Assembly: GCA_963722965.1 (NCBI GenBank)
Contig: CAVROX010000007.1
Coordinates: 149,040 to 213,039, forward strand
Direction: 5' to 3'
Length of the DNA: 64,000 nt
Source of the DNA: an uncultured Solirubrobacterales bacterium
Lineage (GTDB): Bacteria > Actinomycetota > Thermoleophilia > Solirubrobacterales > 70-9
Shown: piece after piece, positions 17,836-34,549 of the stretch
How the letters are laid out: each line of letters begins with the position of its first letter
Numbering within the stretch: position 1 is the stretch's first letter
The notes under the pieces: generated by a model
Told to the model about the DNA's origin: nothing
Databases searched by the model: none
Seen by the model: only the letters and a program-made list of their open reading frames with translations
Translations under genes and position numbers: made by a program

Positions 17836-18627
17836 ATGCACGGCCGCCTGCCGATAGTCAAGATGCTCGCCGCGACCATCGCGCTGGCCGCCGCGATCTC
17901 GGCGGTGATGCTCTCGATCAACTGGAACGGCGAGGAGGCTTCCACCGCGGCTCCCAAGATCGATGACCTCCTCAACATCATGATCGTGCTCTCCTCGATC
18001 GTCTTCTCGCTCGTCGTCGTGATGTTGTTCTACGCGCTGTGGAAATTCAGGGCCAAACCAGGGGACGAGTCAGACGGCGAGCCGATCCACGGCAACACGC
18101 GGCTTGAGATCGCCTGGACGCTGATCCCGACGATCATCGTCCTCTTCGGCGGTGCCTACAGCTGGAAAGTGCTGAACGAAATCGAACAGCGGGGCAAGGA
18201 CCCGATGACAGTTGACGTCTTCTCCCAGCAGTACGCGTGGAGCTTCGGCTACCCGGGCAAGGGCGATGTCTGGTCGCCCGGCGAACTGCGGGTCCCGGTC
18301 AACCGCCAGATCGTGTTCAGGATGCACTCCCAGGACGTGATCCACTCCTTCTGGGTGCCGGAGTGGCGGATCAAGAAAGACAACGTCCCGGGGATCACGA
18401 CGACCGCGGTGATCACCCCCGACCGGATCGGGACCTACCAGGTGATCTGCACCCAGCTCTGCGGCTTCGGCCACTCGACGATGAGGGCGAAAGTCGTGGT
18501 CGAGTCACCGGCGAAATTCAGGCAATGGGTCTCGGGCCTGAAGGAGAAGGTCCCGTCTTCCTACCAGGAATCAATCAGGCAGGACACCGAAACGAACCCG
18601 CCGCCGCTGACGGCGGGAGGGGCATAA
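17836..18627 (+). CDS. ctaC: cytochrome c oxidase subunit II
   Basis: 263 aa, two N-terminal TM helices, CuA site 'HSFWVPEW...CTQLCGFGHSTM'. Confidence 0.93.
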   Translation: MHGRLPIVKMLAATIALAAAISAVMLSINWNGEEASTAAPKIDDLLNIMIVLSSIVFSLVVVMLFYALWKFRAKPGDESDGEPIHGNTRLEIAWTLIPTIIVLFGGAYSWKVLNEIEQRGKDPMTVDVFSQQYAWSFGYPGKGDVWSPGELRVPVNRQIVFRMHSQDVIHSFWVPEWRIKKDNVPGITTTAVITPDRIGTYQVICTQLCGFGHSTMRAKVVVESPAKFRQWVSGLKEKVPSSYQESIRQDTETNPPPLTAGGA

Positions 18628-18640
18628 TGGAGGCGATCTG

Positions 18641-20545
18641 ATGGCGGCTGCGATCAAGCGACCGGGATGGATTCGGGGGGCAATCGGCGCCGTGCTGGCC
18701 GGAGCGTTTGGCTTTGGCCTCGTTATCTCGCTGCGGGCGATCTCCGACCTGCCCATCTACCAGACCGCCCAGAACGGCTATCCGCAGGTGATCGTGCCGC
18801 TGATCACCACGCCGTTTGGCTTCCTCGCCGGCTTCGGCTGCTTTGACTACTGGCTGCGCTGGGCGGTGGGGATGCCGACGATCCCCGACGATCACTCCCA
18901 GCACGGGGCCAAGAGCTGGCGCGATTACTTCCGCTTCAACACCGATCACAAGGTGATCGGGATCCAGTACATCTGCAACAGCTTCTTCTTCTTCTTCGTC
19001 GGCGGGCTGCTGGCGGAGGTGATGCGGGCTCAGCTGGCACAGCCCGGCAACCAGATTGTCGACCCCAGCACCTACAACAGCCTCTTCTCGACTCACGCGG
19101 TGCTGATGATCTTCGTCTTCGTGATCCCGATCTTCGCCGGGATCGCCAACTACGTCCTGCCGCTGATGATCGGCGCACCGGACATGGCATTCCCGCGCCT
19201 CAACGCGCTCAGCTTCTGGCTGCTGCCGATCGCCGGGCTGCTCTTTGTCGGCAGCTTCCTGGCACCCGGCGGCGCCTTTGACGCCGGCTGGACGGGCTAC
19301 GCGCCGCTCTCGACCGGCGCACCGCTCGGGCAGTCGTTCTTCAACATCGGCGTGCAGTTCGCCGGTGCCTCCTCGATCGCCACCGCGCTCAACTTCCTCG
19401 TCACGATCATCACCATGCGGGCGCCGGGGATGAACTTCTGGCGGATGCCGTTGCTGGTCTGGGCCAACCTCTCGACCTCGCTGCTGGTCGTCGCCGCGAC
19501 CCCGTTCATCGCCGGCGCCCAGTTCATGGTCCTCCTCGATCGCCTCGTCCACACCAACTTCTTTCAGTTCACCGGCGGCGGCGACGTGATCAGCTACCAG
19601 CACATTTTCTGGTTCTACTCCCACCCGGCCGTCTACATCATGATGCTGCCCGGCTTCGGGATCATTAGCGAGGTCATATCGACCCATGCCCGAAAGCCGA
19701 TCTTCGGCTACCGGTTGATGGCGCTGGCGCTGCTTGGGATCGTCGTCCTCAGCTACTCGGTGTGGGCACACCACATGTTTGTCGCCGGGATGTTCAGCTG
19801 GCTGCGCGTGCCGATGATGTTCACGACGCTGCTGATCGCGGTGCCGACCGGGATCAAGATCTTCTCCTGGCTCGGCACGCTGTATTTCGGCAAGATCCAC
19901 ACCTACTCGACGGCGATGTTATTCGCGCTCGCCTTCATCGTCACTTTCACGATCGGGGGGATCAGCGGCGTGATGCTGGGCATGGTCCCGATCGACATCC
20001 ACGTCTCCCAGACGTACTTCATCGTTGCCCACATTCACTTCGTGCTGTTCGGCGGTTCGGTCTTCACGATCTTTGCCGGTATCTACCACTGGTTCCCCAA
20101 GATGACGGGGCGAATGTATGACGAGAAGCTCGGCCGAGTCCACTTCTGGGGCACGCTGATCTGCACCTGGGGGACGTTCCTGCCGATGCACTGGATCGGG
20201 ATGGACGGGATGCCGCGCCGGGTCGCTACCTACGCCGCCCAGTTTGGGGACTGGAACCTGCTGATCAGCGTCTTTGCCTTCCTCCTCGGGATCTTCCAGC
20301 TCGTCTTCCTCTACAACATGATCGTCAGCTGGCGATTCGGTCCACGCGCCGTGGGCAACCCCTGGCGGGCGAACTCGATCGAGTGGCAGGTCTCCTCGCC
20401 GCCGCCGATCTTCAATTTCGACGAGATCCCGCGGGTCGTCGGCGGCCCCTACGAGTACGGTGTACCGGGCGCCCGCCACGCGATCATGGGCGGCGAAGGA
20501 GCTGAGGTTCCCGCACCGCGGCCGAGTGTGGTGGGGAGCACTTGA
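18641..20545 (+). CDS. ctaD: cytochrome c oxidase subunit I
   Basis: 634 aa with all canonical ligand motifs: 'STHAVLMIF', 'WFYSHPAVYIMMLPGFG', 'VWAHHMF', 'VAHIHFVLFGG'. Confidence 0.97.
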   Translation: MAAAIKRPGWIRGAIGAVLAGAFGFGLVISLRAISDLPIYQTAQNGYPQVIVPLITTPFGFLAGFGCFDYWLRWAVGMPTIPDDHSQHGAKSWRDYFRFNTDHKVIGIQYICNSFFFFFVGGLLAEVMRAQLAQPGNQIVDPSTYNSLFSTHAVLMIFVFVIPIFAGIANYVLPLMIGAPDMAFPRLNALSFWLLPIAGLLFVGSFLAPGGAFDAGWTGYAPLSTGAPLGQSFFNIGVQFAGASSIATALNFLVTIITMRAPGMNFWRMPLLVWANLSTSLLVVAATPFIAGAQFMVLLDRLVHTNFFQFTGGGDVISYQHIFWFYSHPAVYIMMLPGFGIISEVISTHARKPIFGYRLMALALLGIVVLSYSVWAHHMFVAGMFSWLRVPMMFTTLLIAVPTGIKIFSWLGTLYFGKIHTYSTAMLFALAFIVTFTIGGISGVMLGMVPIDIHVSQTYFIVAHIHFVLFGGSVFTIFAGIYHWFPKMTGRMYDEKLGRVHFWGTLICTWGTFLPMHWIGMDGMPRRVATYAAQFGDWNLLISVFAFLLGIFQLVFLYNMIVSWRFGPRAVGNPWRANSIEWQVSSPPPIFNFDEIPRVVGGPYEYGVPGARHAIMGGEGAEVPAPRPSVVGST

Positions 20546-21417
20546 GCGAGCGGGTAAAGGAGCGGCCGCTGCTGGTCTTCCTCAACGAGGTGGCCGGCGG
20601 GCGCAAGCTTCTGGCCGCTGTGCGGGAGCGGACCAATCGGGTCCCCTACGTCGCCGTTGCGGCCCCCCAGAATCAGCCGGCGGTCGGTCAGCTGATCGAC
20701 TCAGGCGAGCTGCGCGACGCAGCTCGGGCCCGGGTGGAGGTGACGATGGCGGTTCTATCGGAGTTCGGGATCAGCTCGCTCGGCGAGGTGATGGATCGCG
20801 ACCCGGCGCTGGCGCTGGATGACGCTGTCCGCGCCCACGAACCCGCCGAGGTACTGCTCTCCTGCATGATTGGCACGCGCTTCGGATTCACCCGCAGGGA
20901 CCTGGTCGAGTGGGCGCGAGAGCGCTTTGAACCAGAGACCGCCGTCACCCATATACCGGTGCGGATCGAGGATGACTCGATCCGTTGGGACGTGACCCAC
21001 ACGCTAGTGGTTGCGACCAAGACGGTGGCCGCCCCGGACCTCGTCAAACGCCTCAAGGAGCGCGCGACCGAGCGCCCGCACCGCTACACGATCATCTGTC
21101 CGCGCTCTCAGGAGGTCGCCGAGCCGCAGGTGGTCGGTGACCTCGCCTCGACGATGGCCGAGCTGTACCGCGCCGACGTCGACGCGACCGGCCAACCGAT
21201 GAGCCCCGATCCATTTGACGCTGTCAGGAACGCGATCGAGCATTACCGGATCGATGAGATCCTGATCTCGACTTTTGCCGGGGAGGATTCGCGTTGGCTT
21301 GACGGCGACCTGATCGGCCGGGTGCGCGAGATCACCGAGAAGCCGGTCGAGCACATCGAGGTGGGCCGACCGGCGGCCGCGGTCGCGGCCGCCGTCGCCG
21401 AGGGGGAGGAAAGCTAG
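20542..21417 (+). CDS. hypothetical soluble protein with an internally duplicated domain, embedded in the cta operon
   Basis: 291 aa with no TM segments. Its two halves share a pattern: 'LLVFLNEVAGGRKLLAAVRER...VAVAAPQNQ' versus 'TLVVATKTVAAPDLVKRLKER...TIICPRSQ'. TTGA overlap with the ctaD stop, and its stop directly abuts the ctaE ATG. Confidence 0.7.
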   Translation: MSERVKERPLLVFLNEVAGGRKLLAAVRERTNRVPYVAVAAPQNQPAVGQLIDSGELRDAARARVEVTMAVLSEFGISSLGEVMDRDPALALDDAVRAHEPAEVLLSCMIGTRFGFTRRDLVEWARERFEPETAVTHIPVRIEDDSIRWDVTHTLVVATKTVAAPDLVKRLKERATERPHRYTIICPRSQEVAEPQVVGDLASTMAELYRADVDATGQPMSPDPFDAVRNAIEHYRIDEILISTFAGEDSRWLDGDLIGRVREITEKPVEHIEVGRPAAAVAAAVAEGEES

Positions 21418-22044
21418 ATGGAGAGCGCGACTGTAGCGCTGGAGCACGGGCACGGCGAGGAGCACCACGGTCCACCGGAGGCCAACAAAAGCTCTCGCAT
21501 CGATCGCCAGACGCTTGGGATCTTGCTCTTCATCGTCTCCGAGGTGATGCTCTTCGGCGCCTTCTTCGCCTCCTACTTCTTCTTGCGGATCGTCGTCAAC
21601 CCGCCCGCCTGGCCGCCGCACCCCTATGAACTGCCGGTTGCCATCGCCGGGGTCAACACCGCGATCCTCGTCTCCTCCAGCTTCACCGTCCATTACGCCC
21701 TCGAGTCGATCCGGCGGGGCAACCGCAACGGGATGAAGCTGGGGCTCGCCCTCACCTGGATGCTCGGCGCCACCTTCCTCTTCATCCAGATCAACGAGTA
21801 CGTCCATCTCGGCTTCAGCGCTCGCGACCTTTCCTTTGGCACGATCTTCTACTGCCTCACGGGCCTGCACGGCGCCCACGTATTTGTCGGCCTGATGCTG
21901 CTCAGCTTCGCGACGATCCGCGCCTTTCGGGGCCATTTCGGCCCTGATGCCAAGGACCACATGGGAGTTGAGATCCCGGGCATCTACTGGCACTTCGTGG
22001 ACATCATGTGGCTCATCGTCTTTACGGCGGTCTACGTTCTCTGA
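21418..22044 (+). CDS. ctaE: cytochrome c oxidase subunit III
   Basis: 208 aa, 5 TM helices, 'FFASYFFLR', 'HGAHVFVGL', 'YWHFVDIMWLIVF'. Confidence 0.93.
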   Translation: MESATVALEHGHGEEHHGPPEANKSSRIDRQTLGILLFIVSEVMLFGAFFASYFFLRIVVNPPAWPPHPYELPVAIAGVNTAILVSSSFTVHYALESIRRGNRNGMKLGLALTWMLGATFLFIQINEYVHLGFSARDLSFGTIFYCLTGLHGAHVFVGLMLLSFATIRAFRGHFGPDAKDHMGVEIPGIYWHFVDIMWLIVFTAVYVL

Positions 22045-24383: not shown

Positions 24384-25073
24384 TCAGCCCCCCTTGCTCT
24401 TTGAGGTCGAGGCGATCAGGTATTCGACAAGCTCGTTGATTTCATTCGGTTTAAGGATTGTGCCGAAGTCCTGAGGCATAACGTTGGCGGGGTAGCCCGG
24501 AGTGATTTTCGCGTTGGGGACGACGATCGATTCTTTGATCATCGCCGCCGTCTGGCCGGGTAAGACCTTGTTGAAGTCCGGTCCTGTGGTGCCGCCTGAT
24601 TTAGCCGCTGCCAGGGTGTGGCAGCCACCGCAGCCGTTGTTGGCAAAGACCTGGGCGCCTGGGCCCCCCGGCACCCTGGGCGGTGCCGCCCCCGGGACCC
24701 CGGCGTACTTGCCCACGTAGGCGGCGACGTCGTCGAGGTCCTGCCCGCTGACAACGTCACGCGGCATCGAGATGTTGGGGTCGGCATTGCCGGGGCGGGG
24801 GAATTGGACCTGCGCTTTGACGAGCCCTTCGATCGTGTCGCCGCCCTCGCCGGCGGCCCGGGCCGCGGCGAAGGCATCGTCGAGGTTGGGGCCCACCTGG
24901 GCCGTTGTGCCGGCCTGCGCGAGGGTGTGACAGACGCCGCATTTCTGGATGAAGAGCACCCGTCCGCGGGTCACGTCTGCGGTGGTCGTCCCGCAACCGG
25001 AAGCGCCCAGCGCGACTGCGGCGATGGCTGACAGGGCGAGCAGCGCACGGATGAGGTTGGGAAGCTTGGACAT
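24384..25073 (-). CDS. dihaem c-type cytochrome lipoprotein
   Basis: Starting at ATG 25073: 'MSKLPNLIRALLALSAIAAVALGASGCG' (lipobox), then two CxxCH motifs, 'CGVCH' and 'CGGCH'. The upstream part of the track ORF is not protein-like. Confidence 0.85.
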   Translation of the reverse strand: MSKLPNLIRALLALSAIAAVALGASGCGTTTADVTRGRVLFIQKCGVCHTLAQAGTTAQVGPNLDDAFAAARAAGEGGDTIEGLVKAQVQFPRPGNADPNISMPRDVVSGQDLDDVAAYVGKYAGVPGAAPPRVPGGPGAQVFANNGCGGCHTLAAAKSGGTTGPDFNKVLPGQTAAMIKESIVVPNAKITPGYPANVMPQDFGTILKPNEINELVEYLIASTSKSKGG

Positions 25074-25197: not shown

Positions 25198-25599
25198 ATG
25201 CAGGTACGGGATGGTATGTCGGAGGTGGTTCTGACCGTCGGCACCTCGCACACTTTGCGAGAAGCAGCCGAGAGGATGGTGGAGAAGGGCACCGGCGCCG
25301 CGCTGGTCGCCGACCCCGAGTCTCCGGTGCCTGGAATCGTCACCGAGCGTGACATCCTTGTCTCGATCGGAGGCGGTCAGGACCCTGACGCGGAGCTGGT
25401 CGCCGACCACATGAGCGCAAGCGTGATCGCCGCCGCACCCGATTGGAGCCTCGAGCGCGCTGCCGCTGAGATGTCCCACCGCGGTGTCCGCCACCTGGTC
25501 GTCTTCGAGGACGGTGATCTGGTCGGCGTCCTCTCGATGCGAGACATAGTCCGCGTCTGGACATCCGAGGGCGCGACGTCGGGCATGGCCCCCAACTGA
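25198..25599 (+). CDS. CBS-domain pair protein
   Basis: 133 aa. Two CBS-like repeats ('VLTVGTSHTLREAAERMVEKGTGAALV', 'GVRHLVVFEDGDLVGVLSMRDIV'). Confidence 0.85.
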   Translation: MQVRDGMSEVVLTVGTSHTLREAAERMVEKGTGAALVADPESPVPGIVTERDILVSIGGGQDPDAELVADHMSASVIAAAPDWSLERAAAEMSHRGVRHLVVFEDGDLVGVLSMRDIVRVWTSEGATSGMAPN

Positions 25600-26037
25600 C
25601 GGCGCTCCCGTCGGTCAGGCCTGAGGTGGAGAGATTTTTTCCACCGGGAGAGCACCCTCGGACTCCGGCAGAGAAGATCGCCCGCTTTCACGCTTTCGCG
25701 CTTTCATTCGATTTGCAGGCGAAGCGCCGCAGACGGCAGTAAACGCCAGCCCGTAATCGCAACCCGCAAGCAGAAGGTGTGCGGCGCCGGGGGGGCGCCA
25801 CCGCGGGCTCCGATTGGACCCTTTCACCTGGCTTCCCGTCCTTCGAAGAATCAGCCGGCGTCTCGTTACGGCACTTCTCAGGTCCGATCCCGTGAGACGA
25901 CGCTCCTCCTCGGCCGCCCATGCAGTCGGCCCGAGGTTGCCCGTGGTCGACTGATTGAGCGTTCGAAGGTCCTCGCCCCGGCGCCCGTGAAGCCCTAGAG
26001 TCGCTTCTCTCGTTCCACGAATCAGAAGGAAGGGATA

Positions 26038-26622
26038 ATGAAACGCCTCAGAGACAGGCTGAGCTACGCGAACGTCATGGCGACAATCGCCGTATTCATT
26101 GCGCTCGGCGGAAGCGCTTATGCGGCCTCCAAGATCAACGGCAAGACGATCAAGATCAAGTCGATTCCGGGCAACCGCTTGAAGCCCAACACGGTGACCG
26201 GGGCCCAGGTCAACGAGTCCACGCTTGGCCAGGTCCCCTCCGCAGTTCAGGCCAATTCGGCGGCGACCGCGACGAGTGCCGCCAACGCGACCACGGTCAA
26301 CGGCCACACCGCTGAATGCAAGGCTGGCACCCGGCCCTTTGCGGGAAGCTGCTGGGAAAGCGCACCGCGAGCGGCCGTAACTCAGCCGGCTGCGGCCGCT
26401 ACCTGCACGGGATCCGGTGGAACCCTTCCCTCGACTTCCGATCTCGTCGCCTTCTCAAAAGTAGCCACCCTCAGCGCAGGCGACGAGTGGAGCGGCGAAG
26501 TCAACTCCGTCACCGCTGAAAATGTTTTCACGGTGATTACGGTCTCTCCGGAAGGCAAGGTCAACCTCGACGCTCCGACCGACACCAAGGAATACCGCTG
26601 CGTGTTTCCTCTGGTTCGCTGA
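26038..26622 (+). CDS. hypothetical N-terminally anchored secreted protein
   Basis: 194 aa. 'MKRLRDRLSYANVMATIAVFIALGGSAYA' anchor/signal, a Thr/Ala-rich linker and a Cys-containing C-terminal domain. It lies in an A/T-richer islet. Confidence 0.6.
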   Translation: MKRLRDRLSYANVMATIAVFIALGGSAYAASKINGKTIKIKSIPGNRLKPNTVTGAQVNESTLGQVPSAVQANSAATATSAANATTVNGHTAECKAGTRPFAGSCWESAPRAAVTQPAAAATCTGSGGTLPSTSDLVAFSKVATLSAGDEWSGEVNSVTAENVFTVITVSPEGKVNLDAPTDTKEYRCVFPLVR

Positions 26623-26722
26623 ACCCCGGACGGGAGCGGCCATTGAATGACCGCTCCTTCGGTCACCTTGGCGCAAGGAACCGCTCGCGGACCTTGACTT
26701 CGACCCTCTGTCGATCCGTCAG

Positions 26723-26824
26723 GTGTTCCGCAGACTCGGCGGTCACATCAAAAAGCTGCGAAGCAAACTGACTTACGCAAACGTTGTCGCGACGCTGGCG
26801 CTGTTGGCTTATACGGAACCATAA
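26723..26824 (+). pseudogene. truncated paralogue of the 26038 gene N-terminus
   Basis: Hand translation 'VFRRLGGHIKKLRSKLTYANVVATLALLAYTEP*' parallels 'MKRLRDRLSYANVMATIAVFIALGG' and then stops. Confidence 0.4.
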
Positions 26825-26848
26825 AGGCGGACCCCTAGACTGCCCATC

Positions 26849-27259
26849 GTGCCTCGCTGGGCTCTGGTCCTCGCCGTCGCGGCTTGTCTTGCGGCAGTTT
26901 CTATCATCGCGGCCTCTGATAACTCAGCGTCCCCGACCTTCATCAGGTGTAACGGAACGCCTCCCGGAAAAGGGCTGAGGATTCATCCAAGCAAGTGCGT
27001 CGGCAGCGGTCTTGGAGAAGGAGGAGTCCACTGGTTCGCCATCTTGAAGAACCTGCGATGGCATCACTGGGGATCTGGGAGGACGTTGGCTACGGGGTTC
27101 GCAGCTAATGCTGAGGGCCACCGACGCTCACGAGTCCGGGTCGCCGCTTTCGATCAAGCGAACTGTGGGACGACGGGCTTCGCTTACATAGAGCTGAGGC
27201 TGGCGGGTGGGCGGGACGGGGCAGTTACCCTCCGCCTTGGCGCCTGCGAAACGGCGTAG
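26849..27259 (+). CDS. hypothetical secreted protein
   Basis: 136 aa with the signal-like 'MPRWALVLAVAACLAAVSIIAAS'. No recognisable family. Confidence 0.45.
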   Translation: MPRWALVLAVAACLAAVSIIAASDNSASPTFIRCNGTPPGKGLRIHPSKCVGSGLGEGGVHWFAILKNLRWHHWGSGRTLATGFAANAEGHRRSRVRVAAFDQANCGTTGFAYIELRLAGGRDGAVTLRLGACETA

Positions 27260-27631
27260 ATGGCAGGCAAGCCGAAGAATGCGGTTAGGCACCTGACATG
27301 GAACGTCGGCTTGCGTCGATCTGGGCCGTCTACCTGGCGTTTGTGGTCGCGTCGGTCGTGACGATCTCTCACGACGAGGAAAACCGCGGCTTCGCCGGGG
27401 CGCTGCCACTAGAGGTAATGACTCGGGTCTGGTGCGCAAACACGAAAGTCAACGCCAGCGAGGGCTCGCGAAAATGCACGGCATCGCGACCGCGCCCGTG
27501 CGATCTGGGTTGAAGTGATGACCCGCCACTTTCAGCCCATGCGGCCTATCCACTGCAAACCCCAAATCGCCTTGGTTGACCAGTGGCGAGCGGCTCAGCA
27601 CCGGCGCTCGCAACAACGGTGAGGTGCAGAT

Positions 27632-27937
27632 TTAGCTCTGTGAGCGGCTTTGCTGCGGAGGGCTGACCGTTTCAATCGGAAGCACGGCGCCGCGCACCTT
27701 CTGCTTGCGGGGCAGCCGGTAGTAATCGCGCACGGCTCCCTTGATCAGGTTGCGCAGCGCGGCGAGGAAGAAAATTACGCCGACGATCGCGTAGAGCGTG
27801 GAGGGGAAGATGAAGCCGTTGGCGTAGATTCCGCAGAGCATCGCGCCGATCCCTGCGGCGAAGAAAGCGGGCCCCCAGGAGGGACGGGGCAGGTAGATCA
27901 TCTCGCCGGGCTCAGGGATGTCGCGGTGCTCATTCAT
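27632..27937 (-). CDS. small two-TM membrane protein, last gene of the ctaB operon
   Basis: 101 aa, 'LPRPSWGPAFFAAGIGAMLCGIY...YAIVGVIFFLAALRNL'. Same strand as ctaB and closely spaced. Confidence 0.55.
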   Translation of the reverse strand: MNEHRDIPEPGEMIYLPRPSWGPAFFAAGIGAMLCGIYANGFIFPSTLYAIVGVIFFLAALRNLIKGAVRDYYRLPRKQKVRGAVLPIETVSPPQQSRSQS

Positions 27938-28071: not shown

Positions 28072-28998
28072 TCAGGCGAGCCTGGCGTCGACGGCCATCG
28101 CGAGGAAGAGCAGCGCCAAGTAGGAGAGGGAGTAGAGGTAAGTTCGCAGCGCCCAGCGCCGATTGGCGCTTTGCAGGAGACGCACAGCGCAGTAGATGAA
28201 GATTCCCCCCAGGGTGATTGAGGCCGCCAAGTAGGAAAGGCCGAAGCCGCCGGCACAGAAGGGTAACTGGGTCACCGCATACAGAAGCACCGTGTAGAGG
28301 AGGATCTGGCGCCGGGTCTCGGCCTCCCCCCGTACGACCGGCAGCATCGGCACGCCGGCCTTTTCGTAGTCGTTCTTCATCAGCAGCGAGAGAGCCCAGA
28401 AGTGGGGTGGGGTCCAAAAGAAGACGATCGCGAAGAGGTAAAGCGCGGTGCCGCTGAGCCCGCCGGTCACGGCCGCCCAGGCGACCAGCGGCGGCACCGC
28501 TCCGGCGGCACCGCCGATCACGATGTTCTGCGGCGTGGCCCGCTTCAGCCAGAGGGTGTAGACACAGACATAACCGATCAGCCCCGAGAGCGAGAGCGTC
28601 GCAGCCAGCGGGTTGACCGCCAGCGCCAGCAGAGCGAAGGAGGCGCAGCCGAGCGTTAGGCCGAAGGCGGTGGCGGCGGCGGGGGAGACCCGCCCGCTGG
28701 CCACCGGCCGGTTGGCGGTGCGGGCCATCTTGCGGTCGATGTCGTGGTCGATCGCGTGGTTGATCGCCCCCGCGCCGCCCGCCGAAAGGGCGCCGCCGAG
28801 GCAGGTCAGAAGGACCAGGCCGATCGACGGGTCGCCCGCCACATACATGGTCGTGACCGTGATGAAAAGCAGCAGCGACTGCACCCGCGGCTTGGTCAGG
28901 GTTAGGTAATCGCGGAGGACGGCGAGCGCGGGCGAGCTCCGGACTGCTCCCGCCGTGGTCGTGGTCGGGATGGTCTGCGCTCCGGCGCCGGCAGCCAT
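28072..28998 (-). CDS. ctaB: protohaem IX farnesyltransferase (haem O synthase)
   Basis: 308 aa UbiA-family protein. 'NHAIDHDIDRKMARTANRP', about 9 TM helices. Confidence 0.93.
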   Translation of the reverse strand: MAAGAGAQTIPTTTTAGAVRSSPALAVLRDYLTLTKPRVQSLLLFITVTTMYVAGDPSIGLVLLTCLGGALSAGGAGAINHAIDHDIDRKMARTANRPVASGRVSPAAATAFGLTLGCASFALLALAVNPLAATLSLSGLIGYVCVYTLWLKRATPQNIVIGGAAGAVPPLVAWAAVTGGLSGTALYLFAIVFFWTPPHFWALSLLMKNDYEKAGVPMLPVVRGEAETRRQILLYTVLLYAVTQLPFCAGGFGLSYLAASITLGGIFIYCAVRLLQSANRRWALRTYLYSLSYLALLFLAMAVDARLA

Positions 28999-29003
28999 AG
29001 CGC

Positions 29004-31382
29004 TCAGGCTACCGGCTGGGACTCATGCACGGGCAACTCGGCGCGATCGACCCGGTGGGCAATCGCGATCCGGATGTCGCGCATCGGACGGGCGCTGCGA
29101 ACGTCGGGGAGGAGATCGAAGTTATGGGGATCCGGTGGCGAGAGGGTCAGCCACTCGAGCGTGTCCCCGCGCCAAGGGTCATGCCCTGCCTCCGCGCCTC
29201 TCGTGCGGCTGAGGATCGCATTGACGAGCGTGAGCACGATGCCGATCGCCAGCACGAAGGCTCCGATCGAAGCGATCAGGTTGTAGGTGCTGACGCCGGT
29301 GTGGTCGAAATACTTGTAGGCATCGACGACCTCGCCGTGCGTGGCGCCTGCGAGGAACAGTGGCACGAAGGCGAGGACGATGCCGATCGCCATCGTCCAG
29401 AAGGAGATCCGGGCAAGGTTCTCGCCCATCGTCCGTCCGGTCATCTTCGGGAACCAGAGGTGCAGTGCGGCAAAGCCACCGAAAACACTGCCACCGATTA
29501 GAGCAAAATGGGTTGCCGCGGTGGCCGCTGTCGTGTTCTTGATGTCCCAGGCAGCCGCGACCATGGATTGCTGGATCTCGGCGGCGAGGCCGATCGAGAT
29601 CGCCGAGATCGCCCCGACTGCAAACAGGAGGGGCGCCCGCAATCTCAGCGTCCCGCCCACCATCGTCGCGATCAGGTTGAAGGCGAGAAGGCCGAAGGGA
29701 ACGATCAGCGCCAGCGACATCACCATCGCGAAGTACATCCAACCGATTCCGATCGGGGCGGTCAGCATATTCTGCATCCAGGCCAGGGTCCCGATCACCG
29801 CGATTGCGATCAGCGAGCCGATCACCGCACCGCGGTTGAAAAGCGGCTTGCGGGCGAAAGTGGGGACGATCTCGCCAATCGCGCCGAAGGCCGCGATCAA
29901 GATCAGCATGTAGGCGCCGGTGAAGAAGATCCAGCTGAGGTGTTGCCAGAGCAGCGCTGACCCGCCCGCGCTGCCCGCGAAGAATGTGCCGCCGAAGTTG
30001 CGGTCGATAAGCAGCATCGCGATCGCCGCGATCAGCACCGGGCCGATCACCAGCATCAACCAGGAACAGATCGCCGCCGCCCAGGCGAAGACCGGCAGCC
30101 GCCGCCACGCCATCCCGGGGGCGCGCATGGTGCGCAGCGTCGCGACCAGGTTGATCGCGATGAAGACGAAGCCCAGGGTCACCATGCCGGTGGCCGTTGC
30201 CCAGGCGTTGACGCCGTTATTGGAGAGGTACCGGAGTTCTGAAAGCGGCGCCAGAGGGTTGACCCCCGCCTCGGTCGGGGTAAAGATGAAGCTGGCGTAG
30301 AGCACCGTCGCTCCCGCGAGGAAGAGCCACATTCCGATCTGCCCGAGGCGCGGCAGCGCCGTTCCGCGAGCGCCGATCTGAAGTGGCGCGACGTAGTAGA
30401 AGAGCCCGAGCGCGAATGGGATCGCGAAGAGAAAGATCGCCGTCGTTCCGTAGACGGAGAGGAGTCGGTTGAAGGTGACCGGGGTGAGGAAGGTGTTTTC
30501 GGGGATCGCCAGCTGAAGGCGCATCAGCAGCATCTGGATCACGGCGAGAAAAAGGAAGCCAAACGCCCCGACGATCATCACCCGGCCGACGTCCTTGTGG
30601 TCGCCGCTGGTGGCCAGCTCGACCCAGCGTGGGCGGCAGCGCGGGAAGCCGTCGATGACCAGCTCCGGGCGGGGGCGTGAGCTCATGGAATCCTTCTCGC
30701 TGTCGATCAGCCCGACCACACGGTTCTGTGCCGCCTGAACCTCGGCTTTCTGTCGCATGATGAAGGCCAGATAGGCTTGGGGTGAGACGACATCGACCGC
30801 TGTCCGCATCGCCGCGTAGCCCTGGCCGGAGAAGGTTGAGGATTGGCCCAGGTAGGTGCCTTCCCGGTCAGCCCGGAAGACCACCTGGTCGGCCTTACCG
30901 GGTACCGCGTCGCGCTTGGGGGCCAGTTCGGGCACGTCCCAGGTGTGGATGACGTCGGTCGAGGCCAGGTTGAGGGTGATCGCGGTGTCGACGGGGACCA
31001 CGAGTTTGTAGTAGGAGAAGGCCCCGTTGGGGTAGTTGTAGCGCCACAGCCACTGTCTGCCGGTTGCCAGGATCGTCAGCGGCTGGGAGCGGGCTGAAGC
31101 GAGCCCTGCGGGCCCGGTTCTGGGGATCTCGCGAGCCTTTTCGGTAAAGATGATGCTGAGCACGAGGATTGCTGCGGCAAAAACGGTCAACGCCGCACCG
31201 ACCCGGAACTGGATGCGCCGCCCACCGCGTAGTTGGCGGGGTTCGGCACCCCGCTCGGCGCGGTAGCGGCGCACGGCGAAGATCAGCGCGACGTTGACCG
31301 CGACGACGACGATCGCGGCGGCCAGGTAGCCGATCCAAAGCAGGGTGTGGATCTGGTCGGTGCCAGGGGAGTGGGGCGTCAA
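29004..31382 (-). CDS. fused haem-copper oxidase subunit II-like / subunit I-like protein lacking most metal ligands
   Basis: 792 aa. The N-terminal third aligns to CtaC ('DVIHTWDVPE...GTYLGQSSTFSGQGYAAM'). The rest aligns to CtaD ('GDHKDVGRVMI', 'RTMRAPGMAWRRLP', 'LWFPKMTG'), but the ligand His/Cys positions are substituted (see findings). Confidence 0.85.
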   Translation of the reverse strand: MTPHSPGTDQIHTLLWIGYLAAAIVVVAVNVALIFAVRRYRAERGAEPRQLRGGRRIQFRVGAALTVFAAAILVLSIIFTEKAREIPRTGPAGLASARSQPLTILATGRQWLWRYNYPNGAFSYYKLVVPVDTAITLNLASTDVIHTWDVPELAPKRDAVPGKADQVVFRADREGTYLGQSSTFSGQGYAAMRTAVDVVSPQAYLAFIMRQKAEVQAAQNRVVGLIDSEKDSMSSRPRPELVIDGFPRCRPRWVELATSGDHKDVGRVMIVGAFGFLFLAVIQMLLMRLQLAIPENTFLTPVTFNRLLSVYGTTAIFLFAIPFALGLFYYVAPLQIGARGTALPRLGQIGMWLFLAGATVLYASFIFTPTEAGVNPLAPLSELRYLSNNGVNAWATATGMVTLGFVFIAINLVATLRTMRAPGMAWRRLPVFAWAAAICSWLMLVIGPVLIAAIAMLLIDRNFGGTFFAGSAGGSALLWQHLSWIFFTGAYMLILIAAFGAIGEIVPTFARKPLFNRGAVIGSLIAIAVIGTLAWMQNMLTAPIGIGWMYFAMVMSLALIVPFGLLAFNLIATMVGGTLRLRAPLLFAVGAISAISIGLAAEIQQSMVAAAWDIKNTTAATAATHFALIGGSVFGGFAALHLWFPKMTGRTMGENLARISFWTMAIGIVLAFVPLFLAGATHGEVVDAYKYFDHTGVSTYNLIASIGAFVLAIGIVLTLVNAILSRTRGAEAGHDPWRGDTLEWLTLSPPDPHNFDLLPDVRSARPMRDIRIAIAHRVDRAELPVHESQPVA

Positions 31383-31459: not shown

Positions 31460-32404
31460 ATGCGGACCCGGTCTCGGCCATCTCGGGCGCTGCGCGTGGC
31501 GGTGCGGACCGGGGCGGCCGCCGCCCTCGGGTCAGCCTTTGTGGTTCCGCTGGCGCGCCGCCGCCTCCGCATCCCCGCCCCGGTCACGGTGGCTGCCTGC
31601 GCCGGCGGACCGCTGGGGCTGGCGATCCTGACCCGCCGCTCAAAGAAGCGCGACGTGGCGCTGTTCGCGATTCAGATGTGGGCCTTCACGATCGCTCATG
31701 AAATTCCCTATGACGATCGGGAGGCCCTGCGCCGTCGGCTGCGGGTCGGCTACCCGATCGCAATCGACCGGTTCCTCGGCGCCGGCAGCCTCCCAAACGC
31801 CCGCCTGCAGCGCAGTCTCGCCCGCCTCGGCAGGGTGAAAGCGATCGACCGGGTTCTCGCCTGGGTGCACTGGCTCTGGTTCCTTGAGCCCTATTGCGCC
31901 CTCGCCTTCATCCTCGTCGCTCGCAACGAGCGATTCCCGCGCGCCGCGCGCCAGCTAGCGGCCGTCTTCGACATCGGCTGTGCGATCTACTTCGTGGCGC
32001 CGACCGCCCCACCGTGGTGGTCCTCCGAACAGGGGTTGACGGGGGAGGAAGTGCGCCGGGTCATGGTTGAGGTGGGCGAGGAGACCTGGGGTTCAGCCTG
32101 GCCGGGTATGTACGGGGCGCTGGGCGGCAACCCCTGGGCGGCGATGCCCTCCCTGCACTTCGCGACATCGTTGACGATGGCGCTTGCCCTGGCCGAAGCA
32201 GGGCCGGGGGAGGGTGCAGCCGGCTGGGCTTACGCGCTCGCTCTCGGCTTCGCCCTCGTCTACCTCGGGGAGCACTACGTCACCGATCTAGCCGCCGGCG
32301 CGGTGCTCGTCGTCGCGGTAAGGCGCGGCGAGCGGCTCGGCGCTCCGGTGCTGGTTAGGCTCAACCGCGCCCTGCAGCGCCTGGAGCGCCTCGCTAGCGG
32401 GTAG
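31460..32404 (+). CDS. PAP2-superfamily membrane protein (PAP2_3 / IPC-synthase-like)
   Basis: 314 aa. 'AMPSLHFATS' and 'YLGEHYVTDLAAG' match the PAP2 C2/C3 motifs. Confidence 0.7.
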   Translation: MRTRSRPSRALRVAVRTGAAAALGSAFVVPLARRRLRIPAPVTVAACAGGPLGLAILTRRSKKRDVALFAIQMWAFTIAHEIPYDDREALRRRLRVGYPIAIDRFLGAGSLPNARLQRSLARLGRVKAIDRVLAWVHWLWFLEPYCALAFILVARNERFPRAARQLAAVFDIGCAIYFVAPTAPPWWSSEQGLTGEEVRRVMVEVGEETWGSAWPGMYGALGGNPWAAMPSLHFATSLTMALALAEAGPGEGAAGWAYALALGFALVYLGEHYVTDLAAGAVLVVAVRRGERLGAPVLVRLNRALQRLERLASG

Positions 32405-32414
32405 CTTCTCGGGG

Positions 32415-33549
32415 GTGTCTCAGGAGGACTCGGCGAACGGTGACGCGACCGTCGAGCTGCCGCTGTTCACCGTTCGGCGGATGGTGCAGACGGCGATCGT
32501 CGTCCTCGCGCTGCTGATCGGAATCTACTTTCTCTTCCCCAAGCTGGTCGGTTTGGGCGACGCGCTGAGCAAGCTCGACGAAGCGGAGCCGGTCTGGATC
32601 GGGGTGGCGATCTGCTTCAACGTAGCCGCCTTCGCCACCTACACAGCGCTGTTCAAGGCGGTCGTCGGCGGTCGAGTTCTGCGCTTCACCTGGGCCGAGA
32701 CCTATCAGATCAACATGGCCGGGCTGGCGGCGACGCTGCTTTTCTCGGCTGGCGGGGCGGGCGGAATCGCCCTCACCTTCTGGGCGTTGCGCAAGGCGGG
32801 CATGGGGCGCCGCGACGCGGGTCGGCGCATGGTCGCCTTCCTCACCCTCCACTACGCCTTCTATCCGCTGGCGTTGATCGTTTTCGGGGTGCTGTTGCGG
32901 ACCGGCGTACCTCGACGGCCAGCACCCAGTCGAGCTGACCGTGATCCCAGCGTCGATCGCCGGCCTCCTGCTCGTCTTGGGCGTGTTGGTGGCGATGATC
33001 CCGTCGGACCTTGAACGTCGCGTGGCGCCATTCGTCCACGCTGAGCGCGGCCGCTCCATCGCCCGCATGGTGGCCCGCGTGCCGGCGACCCTCGGCGAGG
33101 GGTTCAGGTTCGCGCTCGGCCTCTTTACCCATCCCTCGCGCGGGGGGCTTGCGGTGGTCGGCGCGGCGGGGTTCTGGGCAGCCAATATCGGCATCCTCTG
33201 GGCCTCCTTCCACGCTTTCGGCGTCCACGTTCCACTTGCGGTTGTGGTCCAGGGGTTCTTCCTCGGCATGGTCGCCAACCTCTTCCCGCTGGCCCCCGCG
33301 GGGGTGGGCGCGGTGGACGCGGGGATGATCGGCGCCTTCGTCCTCTTCGGCCTGCCGCAGGACACGATTTTCCCGGCGATCTTGATCTACCGGCTCGTCG
33401 CCTTCTGGATGCCGATTCCGTTTGGCATCGTCGCCTTCTTCCAGCTCCGCAACACGGTTCAGGAGTGGGAAGTGGAGGGGCTGCCGATTGACCGAAGCGG
33501 TACTATACAAAGTAAAGTAATAGACTTGCAGGCGGCGAAAAATGGCTGA
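32415..33549 (+). pseudogene. lysylphosphatidylglycerol-synthase-TM-region-like (UPF0104) membrane protein, frameshifted
   Basis: Two track ORFs (32415..33014 and 32941..33549) are the two halves of one polytopic protein. The protein-like sequence moves from frame 0 to +1 near 32903-32911 ('...FGVLLRTG' then 'YLDGQHPVELTVIPASIAGLLL'). Confidence 0.7.
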
Positions 33550-34549
33550 AAAGAAAGTCGAGAACGTGATCATCGTCGGCGGTGGCCCGGCGGGCTACAG
33601 CGCGGCGCTCTACACCGCGCGCGCCAACCTCGAGCCCCTTATCTTTGAGGGATTTCACTGGGGCGGGCAGCTGCAGAACACGACCGATGTCGAGAACTAC
33701 CCGGGATACCCCGAGGGGATCATGGGTCCGGAGATGATGGGTCAGTTCCGGGCCCAGGCGGAGCGCTTCGGCACGCGGTTCGTGACCGATGACGTCGATC
33801 GGATCGAGCTATCCGGCGGCGGCGTCCAAAGGGTGTTCCTCGGTGAGGAGGAGCACCGCGCGAAAGCCGTGATCCTGGCGATGGGCGCGGAGCCGCGCCG
33901 GCTTGGGATTCCGGGCGAGTTGGAGCTGGGCGGCCGCGGTGTCTCCACCTGTGGCGTATGCGACGGTGCCTTCTTCAAAGACCAGCGGGTGATCGTTATC
34001 GGCGGTGGGGACTCGGCGATGGAGGACTCGATCTTCATCTCCAAGTACGCGAGCGAGCTGACGGTGGTGAACAGGCGAGATGAGTTTCGCGCCTCAAAGA
34101 TCATGCTCGAGCGCGCCCGGGAACGACCCAACATCGCCTTCAAGACGCCCTTCGTGCCGGAGGAGTTCATCGCCGGCGAGGACGGGAAGCTCGACCACCT
34201 GCGGCTGCGAAACGCCGACACGGGTGAGAGCGAGGATCTGGAGACCGACGGCGCCTTCGTCGCCATCGGCCACATCCCGAAATCGGAGATCGTCGCGGGC
34301 CAGCTCGACACCGACGAGAACGGCTACATCGTGACCGTCGCCGGCTCGACCCGCACCAAGCTGGGCGGGGTCTTCGCGGTGGGCGACGTGGTTGACCACA
34401 CCTATCGCCAGGCGGTCACCGCGGCTGGTACGGGCTGTATGGGCGCCCTCGATGCCGAGTGGTATCTGCGCGACACCCCACCGCTGGCGGAGGCCCACTG
34501 GATGCCCGGCGGGGAGCCGGCTGAGCTCGCTCCGACCCCTGGGAGCTGA
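33542..34549 (+). CDS. trxB: thioredoxin-disulfide reductase
   Basis: 335 aa. 'GGGPAGYSAALYTAR', redox 'CGVCDG', 'GGGDSAMED', 'FAVGDV'. Confidence 0.95.
   Translation: MAEKKVENVIIVGGGPAGYSAALYTARANLEPLIFEGFHWGGQLQNTTDVENYPGYPEGIMGPEMMGQFRAQAERFGTRFVTDDVDRIELSGGGVQRVFLGEEEHRAKAVILAMGAEPRRLGIPGELELGGRGVSTCGVCDGAFFKDQRVIVIGGGDSAMEDSIFISKYASELTVVNRRDEFRASKIMLERARERPNIAFKTPFVPEEFIAGEDGKLDHLRLRNADTGESEDLETDGAFVAIGHIPKSEIVAGQLDTDENGYIVTVAGSTRTKLGGVFAVGDVVDHTYRQAVTAAGTGCMGALDAEWYLRDTPPLAEAHWMPGGEPAELAPTPGS

Follow-up and report, generated by a model that had tools for sequence, protein, structure and literature searches.

Paralogues of cytochrome c oxidase subunits I and II that lack redox-centre ligands are encoded beside haem O synthase in Solirubrobacterales and their relatives

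Introduction

The A-family haem-copper oxidases (HCOs), as exemplified by the aa3 enzymes of R. sphaeroides and P. denitrificans, have a subunit I (CtaD) of 12 transmembrane (TM) helices and a subunit II (CtaC) consisting of two TM helices plus a cupredoxin domain, with the subunit II gene preceding that of subunit I. In the quinol oxidases bo3 and aa3-600 subunit II is devoid of CuA and the operon holds a haem O synthase gene (the last gene of cyoABCDE), but all six ligand histidines, the cross-linked tyrosine and the proton channels of subunit I are kept. Here we describe a locus within a 64,000-nucleotide stretch (the window; 66% G+C) of contig CAVROX010000007.1, assembly GCA_963722965.1, from an uncultured soil Solirubrobacterales bacterium, in which genes encoding homologues of subunit II (COX2-like) and subunit I (COX1-like) are followed by ctaB, the haem O synthase gene. 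The pair resembles the A-family aa3 enzymes in sequence (E about 1e-87 to 1e-111), in its 12-TM and 2-TM plus cupredoxin plan, in gene order, and in the loop motifs PLQIGAR..A.PRL, RAPGM, DR...FF..GG, WFPK and LEW..SPP.HNF. However, the family lacks the CuA cysteines, the CuB and haem a3 ligands, the cross-linked tyrosine, the D- and K-channel residues and the haem-propionate arginine pair, has no subunit III gene, and sits in a haem O/A synthase operon.

Departures from the canonical HCO site are known. Murali et al. 2024 treated the variant-site families cNOR, qNOR, eNOR, bNOR, sNOR, gNOR and nNOR (PMC11214002). In these nitric oxide reductase (NOR)-type families, which are relatives of the B and C families, the haem ligands, both haems and a metal site with three ligands persist, although in gNOR one CuB histidine is replaced by aspartate and the cupredoxin subunit lacks CuA (PMC11214002). 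The NOR-type proteins are like the COX1-like family in being members of the HCO superfamily with altered active sites and no cross-linked tyrosine, and gNOR shares the CuA-less cupredoxin subunit, but the COX1-like family belongs to the A type and is devoid of any metal site. In the cytochrome bd superfamily, a preprint on archaeal cydAA' reportedly describes a CydA' that has lost its haem ligands and persists as a non-catalytic paralogous subunit. CydA' would thus be another ligand-less paralogue of a catalytic-type subunit, but it belongs to a different superfamily and has an active CydA as its partner within one enzyme, whereas here degeneration affects both subunits and a separate locus encodes the active oxidase.

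How bacteria move haem O and haem A out of the synthases and into subunit I is poorly understood. The niche that we propose below, a synthase partner acting between synthesis and insertion, is akin to those of Surf1/Shy1, the CtaA-CtaB complex and the interplay of Cox10/Cox15 with Cox1, of which the Cox10-Cox1 dependence of yeast is an instance. Surf1 differs in having no sequence relationship to the proteins described here, where the partner would be an oxidase-subunit paralogue and the role comes from gene context. CtaA associates with CtaB in a complex and has been proposed to bind apo-subunit I for delivery of haem A (Hederstedt 2022, PMC9145763).

Our literature search, directed at ligand-less HCO paralogues and at Thermoleophilia oxidases, found no published description of this family. 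The HCO classifier of Sousa et al. 2011 discarded sequences without the six histidines (PMC3084760), and this practice may explain why a description is missing.

Results

Loss of ligands and proton channels in the COX1-like protein

The ligand columns of the COX1-like protein were read by aligning it with HMMER to QoxB of B. subtilis (6koc_A, E about 1e-86), in an alignment that has few gaps and none in the ligand motifs. MAFFT alignments with the window CtaD and at least 100 other homologues reproduced these columns. The six histidine columns read Y, T, Q, N, A and H in the window, a loss of five of the six. The helix II haem a ligand is Tyr311 (window numbering), the first CuB histidine is Thr488, the CuB His-His pair is Gln537-Asn538, and the haem a3 ligand is Ala623; the only histidine retained is His625, the helix X ligand of haem a. 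The position of the cross-linked tyrosine is occupied by Met492. The proton channels are also disrupted: D132 and N121 of the D channel are replaced by Gly and Tyr, respectively, and K362 of the K channel by Leu. The arginine pair that anchors the haem propionates has become Val-Asp. The position of E286 is Ala, but the CtaD of the same host also has HPAVY there.

A preliminary description of the locus, made by eye from the DNA alone, had listed the substitutions of the histidines and of the cross-linked tyrosine and concluded that five of the six histidines were gone; the channel and arginine-pair replacements come in addition to its list. Both alignment methods returned each substitution, with His625 the only ligand kept and no histidine at the other five positions, and all of the quoted peptides were found in place, those used for comparison lying in the genuine CtaC and CtaD.

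Loss of the CuA site in the COX2-like protein

The CuA motif of the COX2-like protein, ICTQLCGFGHSTM, aligns with QSSTFSGQGYAAM of the genuine CtaC such that Cys, Cys and His are replaced by Ser, Ser and Tyr, and thus three of the four compared CuA ligand positions are lost, as first described. The CuA methionine and the upstream first histidine (DVIHTW) are kept, and the site reads H-S-x-S-Y-M versus the canonical H-C-x-C-H-M (H-C-E-C-H-M in CtaC). In nearly all of 81 aligned COX2-like sequences these columns are H-[S/A]-x-S-Y-M. The protein scores 134.6 bits with the CoxB model TIGR02866 (cut-off 147.7) versus 68 with CyoA and 60 with QoxA, both far under their cut-offs. Since CoxB is its nearest match among these three, the loss of CuA looks independent of that in the quinol oxidases.

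A conserved family under purifying selection

A scan of one genome per GTDB species gave 589 relatives, the best 80 of which are 47-85% identical to the window protein and nearly all labelled Solirubrobacterales, Thermoleophilia or broader actinobacterial, with one labelled Acidimicrobiia. When the closest relative is included the identity range of the COX1-like/COX2-like family is 47-98%. Further relatives carry the source names of an Acidimicrobiales metagenome-assembled genome (MAG; P0184) and of Actinomycetota MAGs (P0204 and P0306). In a second homologue search, seeded from a Conexibacter-like MAG, all of the proteins retrieved came from MAGs or metagenomes.

The ligand columns were surveyed in 83 COX1-like family members and in 41 CtaD proteins encoded in the same loci. 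All 41 CtaD proteins keep the six histidines. In the COX1-like family the helix II haem a column holds Y, F, G, L or A, the first CuB column mostly T or S, the CuB His-His column a nearly invariant Q-N, the haem a3 column A, S, D, T, C or E, and the arginine pair column [V/I/A]-D. The helix X column is H in most of the window clade and F, Y, W, G, L or other residues elsewhere. The CuB ligands, the haem a3 ligand, the cross-linked tyrosine, the D- and K-channel residues, the arginine pair and the CuA cysteines are lost family-wide, and no member of the aligned sets has more than two of the histidines. None of the six remains in P0122 (49% identical) or P0124 (45%), which are the two syntenic lineages furthest from the window among those examined.

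These losses bear out the earlier statement that the protein cannot be a conventional oxidase. Its companion statement, that all HCO families keep these histidines, is nearly right, the exception being the CuB aspartate of gNOR (PMC11214002). Judged by the alignments, the COX1-like/COX2-like pair would be incapable of binding CuA, CuB or haem a3, and we classify the two proteins as predicted non-redox pseudo-oxidase subunits. A redox enzyme with an unconventional site, that is a new oxidase or NO reductase with non-histidine ligands, is a highly improbable alternative. New HCO families with altered active sites do keep emerging (PMC11214002), but those families keep their haem ligands, whereas here the haem a3 ligand, all CuB ligands, the arginine pair and both CuA cysteines are gone; moreover, distant orthologues lack every histidine and no B, C or NOR structure was matched.

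Decay was addressed by Nei-Gojobori estimates of the ratio of nonsynonymous to synonymous substitution rates (dN/dS), in which the window was compared with ten orthologues. The ratios were 0.15-0.27 for the COX1-like gene, 0.16-0.35 for the COX2-like gene, 0.12-0.26 for CtaB, 0.16-0.24 for CtaA and 0.08-0.17 for CtaD. The COX1-like values denote purifying selection, and thus the gene is not a pseudogene. It could be argued that the pair is a decaying relic of an old oxidase operon, retained solely because transcription or translation has to pass through the COX1-like gene for ctaB to be expressed, given the lost catalytic residues and the frameshift-type differences present in the window itself. 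This is very improbable: the dN/dS values, taken over 560 codons, are similar to those of CtaB and CtaA, the COX1-like open reading frames (ORFs) are intact in at least 80 species-representative genomes, and the replacement residues Q537, N538, Y491 and the CuA-site tyrosine are themselves conserved. The preliminary description had named orthologues, dN/dS and pseudogene decay as its tests; the outcome was a large orthologue set throughout which the substitutions are conserved, with no sign of relaxed selection.

Comparison of the family with CtaD found 87 positions that are at least 90% conserved and common to both, mostly in loops and the C-terminal region, together with 64 conserved family positions that differ from CtaD, including Y491, M536, Q537, N538, E602, S606, D687 and K690. 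The family also has its own cytoplasmic C-terminal tail, PDVRSxxPxxDIRxAI followed by an invariant C-terminal PVA. No family-specific conserved histidine was found in this comparison other than in the known columns.

The residual haem site and the polar cluster

As His625 and Tyr311 are both conserved in the window clade, and the operon linkage to ctaB and ctaA places the protein beside the synthases, the COX1-like protein might be a transient carrier of haem O or haem A, Surf1-like in function, that uses a His625-Tyr311 low-spin site to pass haem from CtaB/CtaA to CtaD. Ligation of haem by a His/Tyr pair occurs in haemophores such as HasA. We consider this carrier function unlikely. In distant syntenic orthologues residue 311 is Phe, Leu, Gly or Ala and residue 625 is Phe, Trp, Tyr, Gly or Leu, the propionate-anchoring arginine pair is [V/I/A]-Asp, and no other histidine specific to the family was found. 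His625 is therefore not a family feature, which weakens haem handling through this residue, and the case for the His625/Tyr311 site as the family function is weakened likewise. By alignment, the canonical low-spin haem site is one axial ligand short in the window clade and both short in distant orthologues, with its propionate anchors gone.

The conserved polar residues T/S488, Y491, Q537, N538, E602 and S606 are membrane-buried and at least 90% conserved, with D687 and K690 near the outer face, and the conserved external cupredoxin domain could serve as a sensor. Such a set could have turned the former binuclear centre into an ion or small-molecule channel, transporter or sensor having only a historical link to haem synthesis. 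This also seems improbable, since distant orthologues vary at these positions (E602 becomes Lys, and the QN pair QS, LN or QG), the D- and K-channel entry residues are gone with no obvious path left, and several separate groups of degenerate proteins show the strict pairing with ctaB. The polar cluster was accordingly rejected as a transport site: the distant orthologues do not keep it.

Fold and placement among the haem-copper oxidases

A family profile run against the PDB matched 41 sequences at E up to 1, all from A-type oxidases (aa3-600, actinobacterial aa3, caa3, bo3 and mitochondrial; best E 1e-111), and no B-family, C-family or NOR chain was among these matches. AlphaFold2 with a shallow alignment (27 sequences at least 77% identical) gave a predicted local distance difference test (pLDDT) score of 40.9. 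With a 61-sequence alignment the COX1-like model reached pLDDT 76.5 and a predicted template modelling (pTM) score of 0.82. Foldseek gave this model TM-scores of 0.83-0.88 to the subunit I structures of C. glutamicum, Mycobacterium and R. sphaeroides, the best matches being CtaD chains of actinobacterial supercomplexes. The COX1-like protein is thus an A-family homologue with a predicted 12-TM subunit I fold, in agreement with the scaffold read from its motifs in the preliminary description. It nevertheless scores under the cut-off of each NCBIfam model tried: 390.1 bits with TIGR02891 (cut-off 670.75), and likewise for QoxB, CyoB and cyt_aa3_Actin.

A quinol-oxidase origin might be proposed from QoxB being the top PDB sequence match, the missing CuA and the cyoABCDE-like operon, but it is unsupported: actinobacterial CtaD is in effect tied with QoxB (376 versus 374 bits) and the COX2-like protein lies nearer to CoxB. 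Membership of the quinol oxidase class (CyoAB/QoxAB) was also rejected, as that class requires a fully liganded subunit I and the ligands are absent here. So were the NOR-type and B/C-family classes, in that all profile matches are A-type and the haem ligands are not kept. In a neighbour-joining tree of 100 representatives the degenerate lineages group together, a grouping in which long-branch attraction may play a part and for which we do not claim monophyly.

Retention of the fold and loop motifs, the structural matches to supercomplex CtaD chains and the proximity of genuine oxidase and cytochrome c genes would also suit a structural, non-catalytic respiratory subunit, belonging for example to a bcc-aa3-type supercomplex or acting to organise the membrane, and taking no direct part in haem synthesis. 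We regard this as quite unlikely, given that the COX1-like gene never occurs in the ctaCDE operon but always with ctaB, and that no subunit III gene accompanies it anywhere in the family.

Linkage to haem O and haem A synthase genes

The preliminary description had the oxidase homologue heading an operon with haem O synthase, and this was upheld. In the window ctaB (362 bits versus an NCBIfam cut-off of 246) begins 5 nucleotides past the COX1-like stop codon, and of the 83 loci that have enough sequence, 80 have ctaB downstream in the same orientation, the other three being contig ends or a frameshifted assembly. A CtaA-like gene stands between the COX1-like gene and ctaB in 20 loci, which form a clade 50-57% identical to the window. 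The intervening gene (loci L057-L083, for example L064 11688-12728) encodes a protein 30-36% identical to the window CtaA in most of these loci, and 41% identical over a short stretch in one of them. No CtaA gene closer to that of the window was seen nearby in these loci. The identities suggest that a different type of haem A synthase resides inside the operon there.

Synteny of the COX1-like locus persists down to 38-45% identity. A 38%-identical lineage that has two histidines left (L086) shows the same arrangement with ctaB. This locus and three others with partial ligand loss (L086, L087, L088 and L090; ligand columns HHLLRYG, NQGRHQG, HTWNEAH and HRYHRHH) adjoin genuine haem O synthase genes, two of which have N-terminal extensions of about 110-125 amino acids as called. 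Elsewhere the order is COX2, COX1-like, then haem O synthase (P0287), or COX1-like, then haem O synthase (P0305). Degenerate COX1 lineages of this kind, among them ones from Acidimicrobiales and other Actinomycetota, have genuine haem O synthase genes as neighbours. In P0161 a divergent ctaA is followed by ctaB, the COX1-like gene, COX3 and then a genuine oxidase operon. A haem O synthase gene also directly follows P0302, a fully liganded protein that branches basally to one of the degenerate groups in the tree. As the degenerate lineages and P0302 all adjoin ctaB, linkage to haem O synthase is the one constant feature.

Two genes rather than one fused gene

In the window the two coding regions form one uninterrupted ORF of 792 codons that runs from 31382 to 29004 on the minus strand from a TTG start, and the preliminary description called it a fused subunit II-I protein. 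Pfam finds COX2 at amino acids 126-198 (73.5 bits) and a full-length COX1 at 265-710 (297.5 bits). The ORF stands but the fusion does not. In the two loci designated L001 (98% identical) and L002 (78%) there are two genes overlapping by 4 nucleotides (GTGA/ATGA), the COX2-like gene being called at 196-219 amino acids with a TGA end (the L001 copy is clipped by the contig end). The orthologous COX2-like proteins end in ...LIDSGRIP*, whereas the window copy runs on into the COX1-like frame. DNA alignment with L001 and L002 shows that the window has an extra A at 30697 (minus-strand gcgAgaagg versus gcg-gaagg), 10 nucleotides upstream of the COX1-like ATG. This A removes the COX2-like stop and puts both genes in one frame, which gives the 792-amino acid ORF. 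None of 85 related loci has both domains in one ORF, and all 120 best database homologues are about 560 amino acids long and cover only the COX1-like 71% of the window ORF. These orthologues (P0001-P0120) begin at the COX1-like ATG, which is preceded by a Shine-Dalgarno-like GAAGGA, and hence a 560-amino acid protein may still be initiated separately in the window copy.

Topology points the same way. The hydropathy profile of the ORF has 2 + 12 TM segments, those of the COX2-like part at 19-37 and 61-79, and the linker (amino acids 195-262) has no hydrophobic segment (maximum Kyte-Doolittle score 0.54). In established structures the subunit II cupredoxin domain is outside the cell and the subunit I N-terminus inside. 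With no TM helix in the linker a direct fusion is topologically inconsistent with these orientations. We conclude that the locus consists of two genes and that the 792-amino acid fusion results from a one-base insertion peculiar to the window. The insertion very likely arose in assembly or by recent mutation, assembly being the more probable source. When metagenome contigs were scanned for exact matches to the junction, neither the form with the extra A nor that lacking it was found, an outcome that is neutral as to whether the insertion is real.

A second single extra A, at 32909 and 2.2 kb away, breaks the LPG_synthase_TM gene into two frames (GGCGTACCTC in the window versus GGCGT-CCTC in three orthologues). 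Like in kind to the insertion at 30697, it points to indel errors in the window assembly; the remaining 18 syntenic genes of the window are intact. Frameshifts that break or fuse genes (the COX1-like gene, and CtaD plus p291) are also seen in three reference MAG loci (L052, L053 and L056), so indel noise is common in this assembly set. A second sporadic COX2-COX1-like fused gene call was noted in a different species (P0320, 875 amino acids, on a 213-kb NCBI/ENA contig). Its linker is rich in Gly, Ala and Arg and resembles frameshifted read-through.

Neighbouring genes

The coordinates of the locus and its neighbours are collected in Table 1. The 101-amino acid protein encoded after ctaB matches no Pfam or NCBIfam family. 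It is present after ctaB in most loci, and synteny extends to the CBS-domain gene, which is read from the opposite strand; each of the two is a candidate part of the same functional module as ctaB. Between these two genes lies a stretch of about 2 kb (window about 25600-27630) for which none of the 90 loci compared, the 98%-identical relative included, offers a matching nucleotide sequence, and whose ORFs at 25615-26307 (-), 26038-26622 (+) and 26849-27259 (+) gave no significant Pfam match. Judged from these comparisons, it may be a strain-specific insertion.

The genuine CtaD has an N-terminal extension of about 95 amino acids ahead of the COX1 domain and the motif YSHPAVY in place of HPEVY. 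It has no Glu-286, and the Tyr-Ser pair is present, which we take to mark the A2 subtype. The 291-amino acid protein encoded next to it is apparently soluble and matches neither Pfam nor NCBIfam families. The start of its gene overlaps the stop codon of ctaD, and it is conserved at 57-82% identity among related loci.

Table 1. Positions of the COX1-like/COX2-like locus and surrounding features in the window
Feature	Position	Strand	Remarks
ctaC	17836-18627	+	genuine CtaC
ctaD	18641-20545	+	all ligands present; YSHPAVY motif
291-aa ORF	20542-21417	+	between ctaD and ctaE
ctaE	21418-22044	+	
Genuine oxidase operon	17836..22044	+	ctaC, ctaD, 291-aa ORF, ctaE; about 8 kb from the COX1-like locus
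ctaA	23366..24358	-	COX15 family haem A synthase; further along the ctaB strand, after the cytochrome c gene
Cytochrome c gene	about 24384-25004		between the genuine oxidase operon and the COX1-like locus
CBS-domain gene	25198-25599		133 aa
101-aa protein gene	27632..27937	-	conserved, downstream of ctaB; two hydrophobic stretches, apparent 2-TM hairpin by eye
ctaB	28072..28998	-	haem O synthase, 308 aa
COX1-like gene	29004..30686	-	560 aa; ATG 30686-30684, TGA 29006-29004
COX2-like gene	30687..31382	-	2 TM helices plus cupredoxin domain
Shine-Dalgarno-like GAAGGA	30696-30691	-	4-nucleotide spacer, then the COX1-like ATG
PAP2_3	31460-32404	+	conserved, divergently transcribed neighbour
LPG_synthase_TM	32457-33582	+	conserved divergent neighbour; frameshifted at about 32909
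Thioredoxin-reductase-like flavoprotein	33542-34549	+	conserved divergent neighbour

Discussion

We propose that the COX1-like/COX2-like pair serves CtaB and CtaA as a docking partner or scaffold that has no redox activity. Gene context and conservation are the basis of this proposal, which we favour tentatively at a little short of an even chance. Two proteins paralogous to CtaC and CtaD, with the A-family fold and the extracytoplasmic loop motifs preserved but the redox centres and proton channels lost, would share an operon with CtaB and, in the case of a sister clade, with a CtaA-like homologue too. Such an oxidase-shaped stand-in could organise, stabilise or regulate the conversion of haem O to haem A and would help to pass haem on to the real CtaD, whose gene lies at a distance of about 8 kb, with the conserved cytoplasmic tail PDVRSxxPxxDIRxAI...PVA as a candidate contact surface. 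A scaffold fits the known CtaA-CtaB complex and the suggestion that CtaA binds apo-subunit I (PMC9145763). Of the roles put forward in the preliminary description, a scaffold or assembly factor is the one that gene context favours, whereas its haem-handling role loses ground where it depends on His625.

Several observations weigh against a docking partner or scaffold. Gene order in this class is conserved region-wide, and the adjacency to ctaB may therefore be in part a legacy of an ancestral ctaC-ctaD-ctaB oxidase operon. No conserved haem ligand or obvious binding site is present to explain haem handling. In the window clade the polar set described above (T/S488 through S606) hints at some other chemistry, although the most distant orthologues do not keep it. 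Finally, the extracytoplasmic cupredoxin domain is conserved, which a partnership with CtaB confined to the cytoplasm or membrane does not explain.

A broader proposal is that there is a clade of subunit I paralogues in deep-branching Actinomycetota (Thermoleophilia and Acidimicrobiia) dedicated to the haem O/A synthases, in which the ligands were lost stepwise (six, two, none). We consider this possible but on the doubtful side.

The family represents a ligand-free A-family branch under selection and tied to haem A biosynthesis, and the ligand loss is wider than the view from a single window had indicated. Annotations give the COX1-like genes the names "cytochrome c oxidase subunit I" or "cbb3-type subunit I", and consequently metabolic inferences that rest on oxidase counts in Thermoleophilia MAGs will come out too high. 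An HCO scaffold can evidently persist under selection without any redox centre, and a strongly conserved, cofactor-free copy of the acceptor, encoded in the synthase operon, offers a natural handle on the haem transfer step. If the broader proposal of a dedicated clade is correct, subunit I would have a second, non-redox role in docking or activating CtaB and CtaA that was later taken over by a separate protein after gene duplication, and the Solirubrobacterales pair would be an obligatory subunit of a machine for haem A synthesis and delivery.

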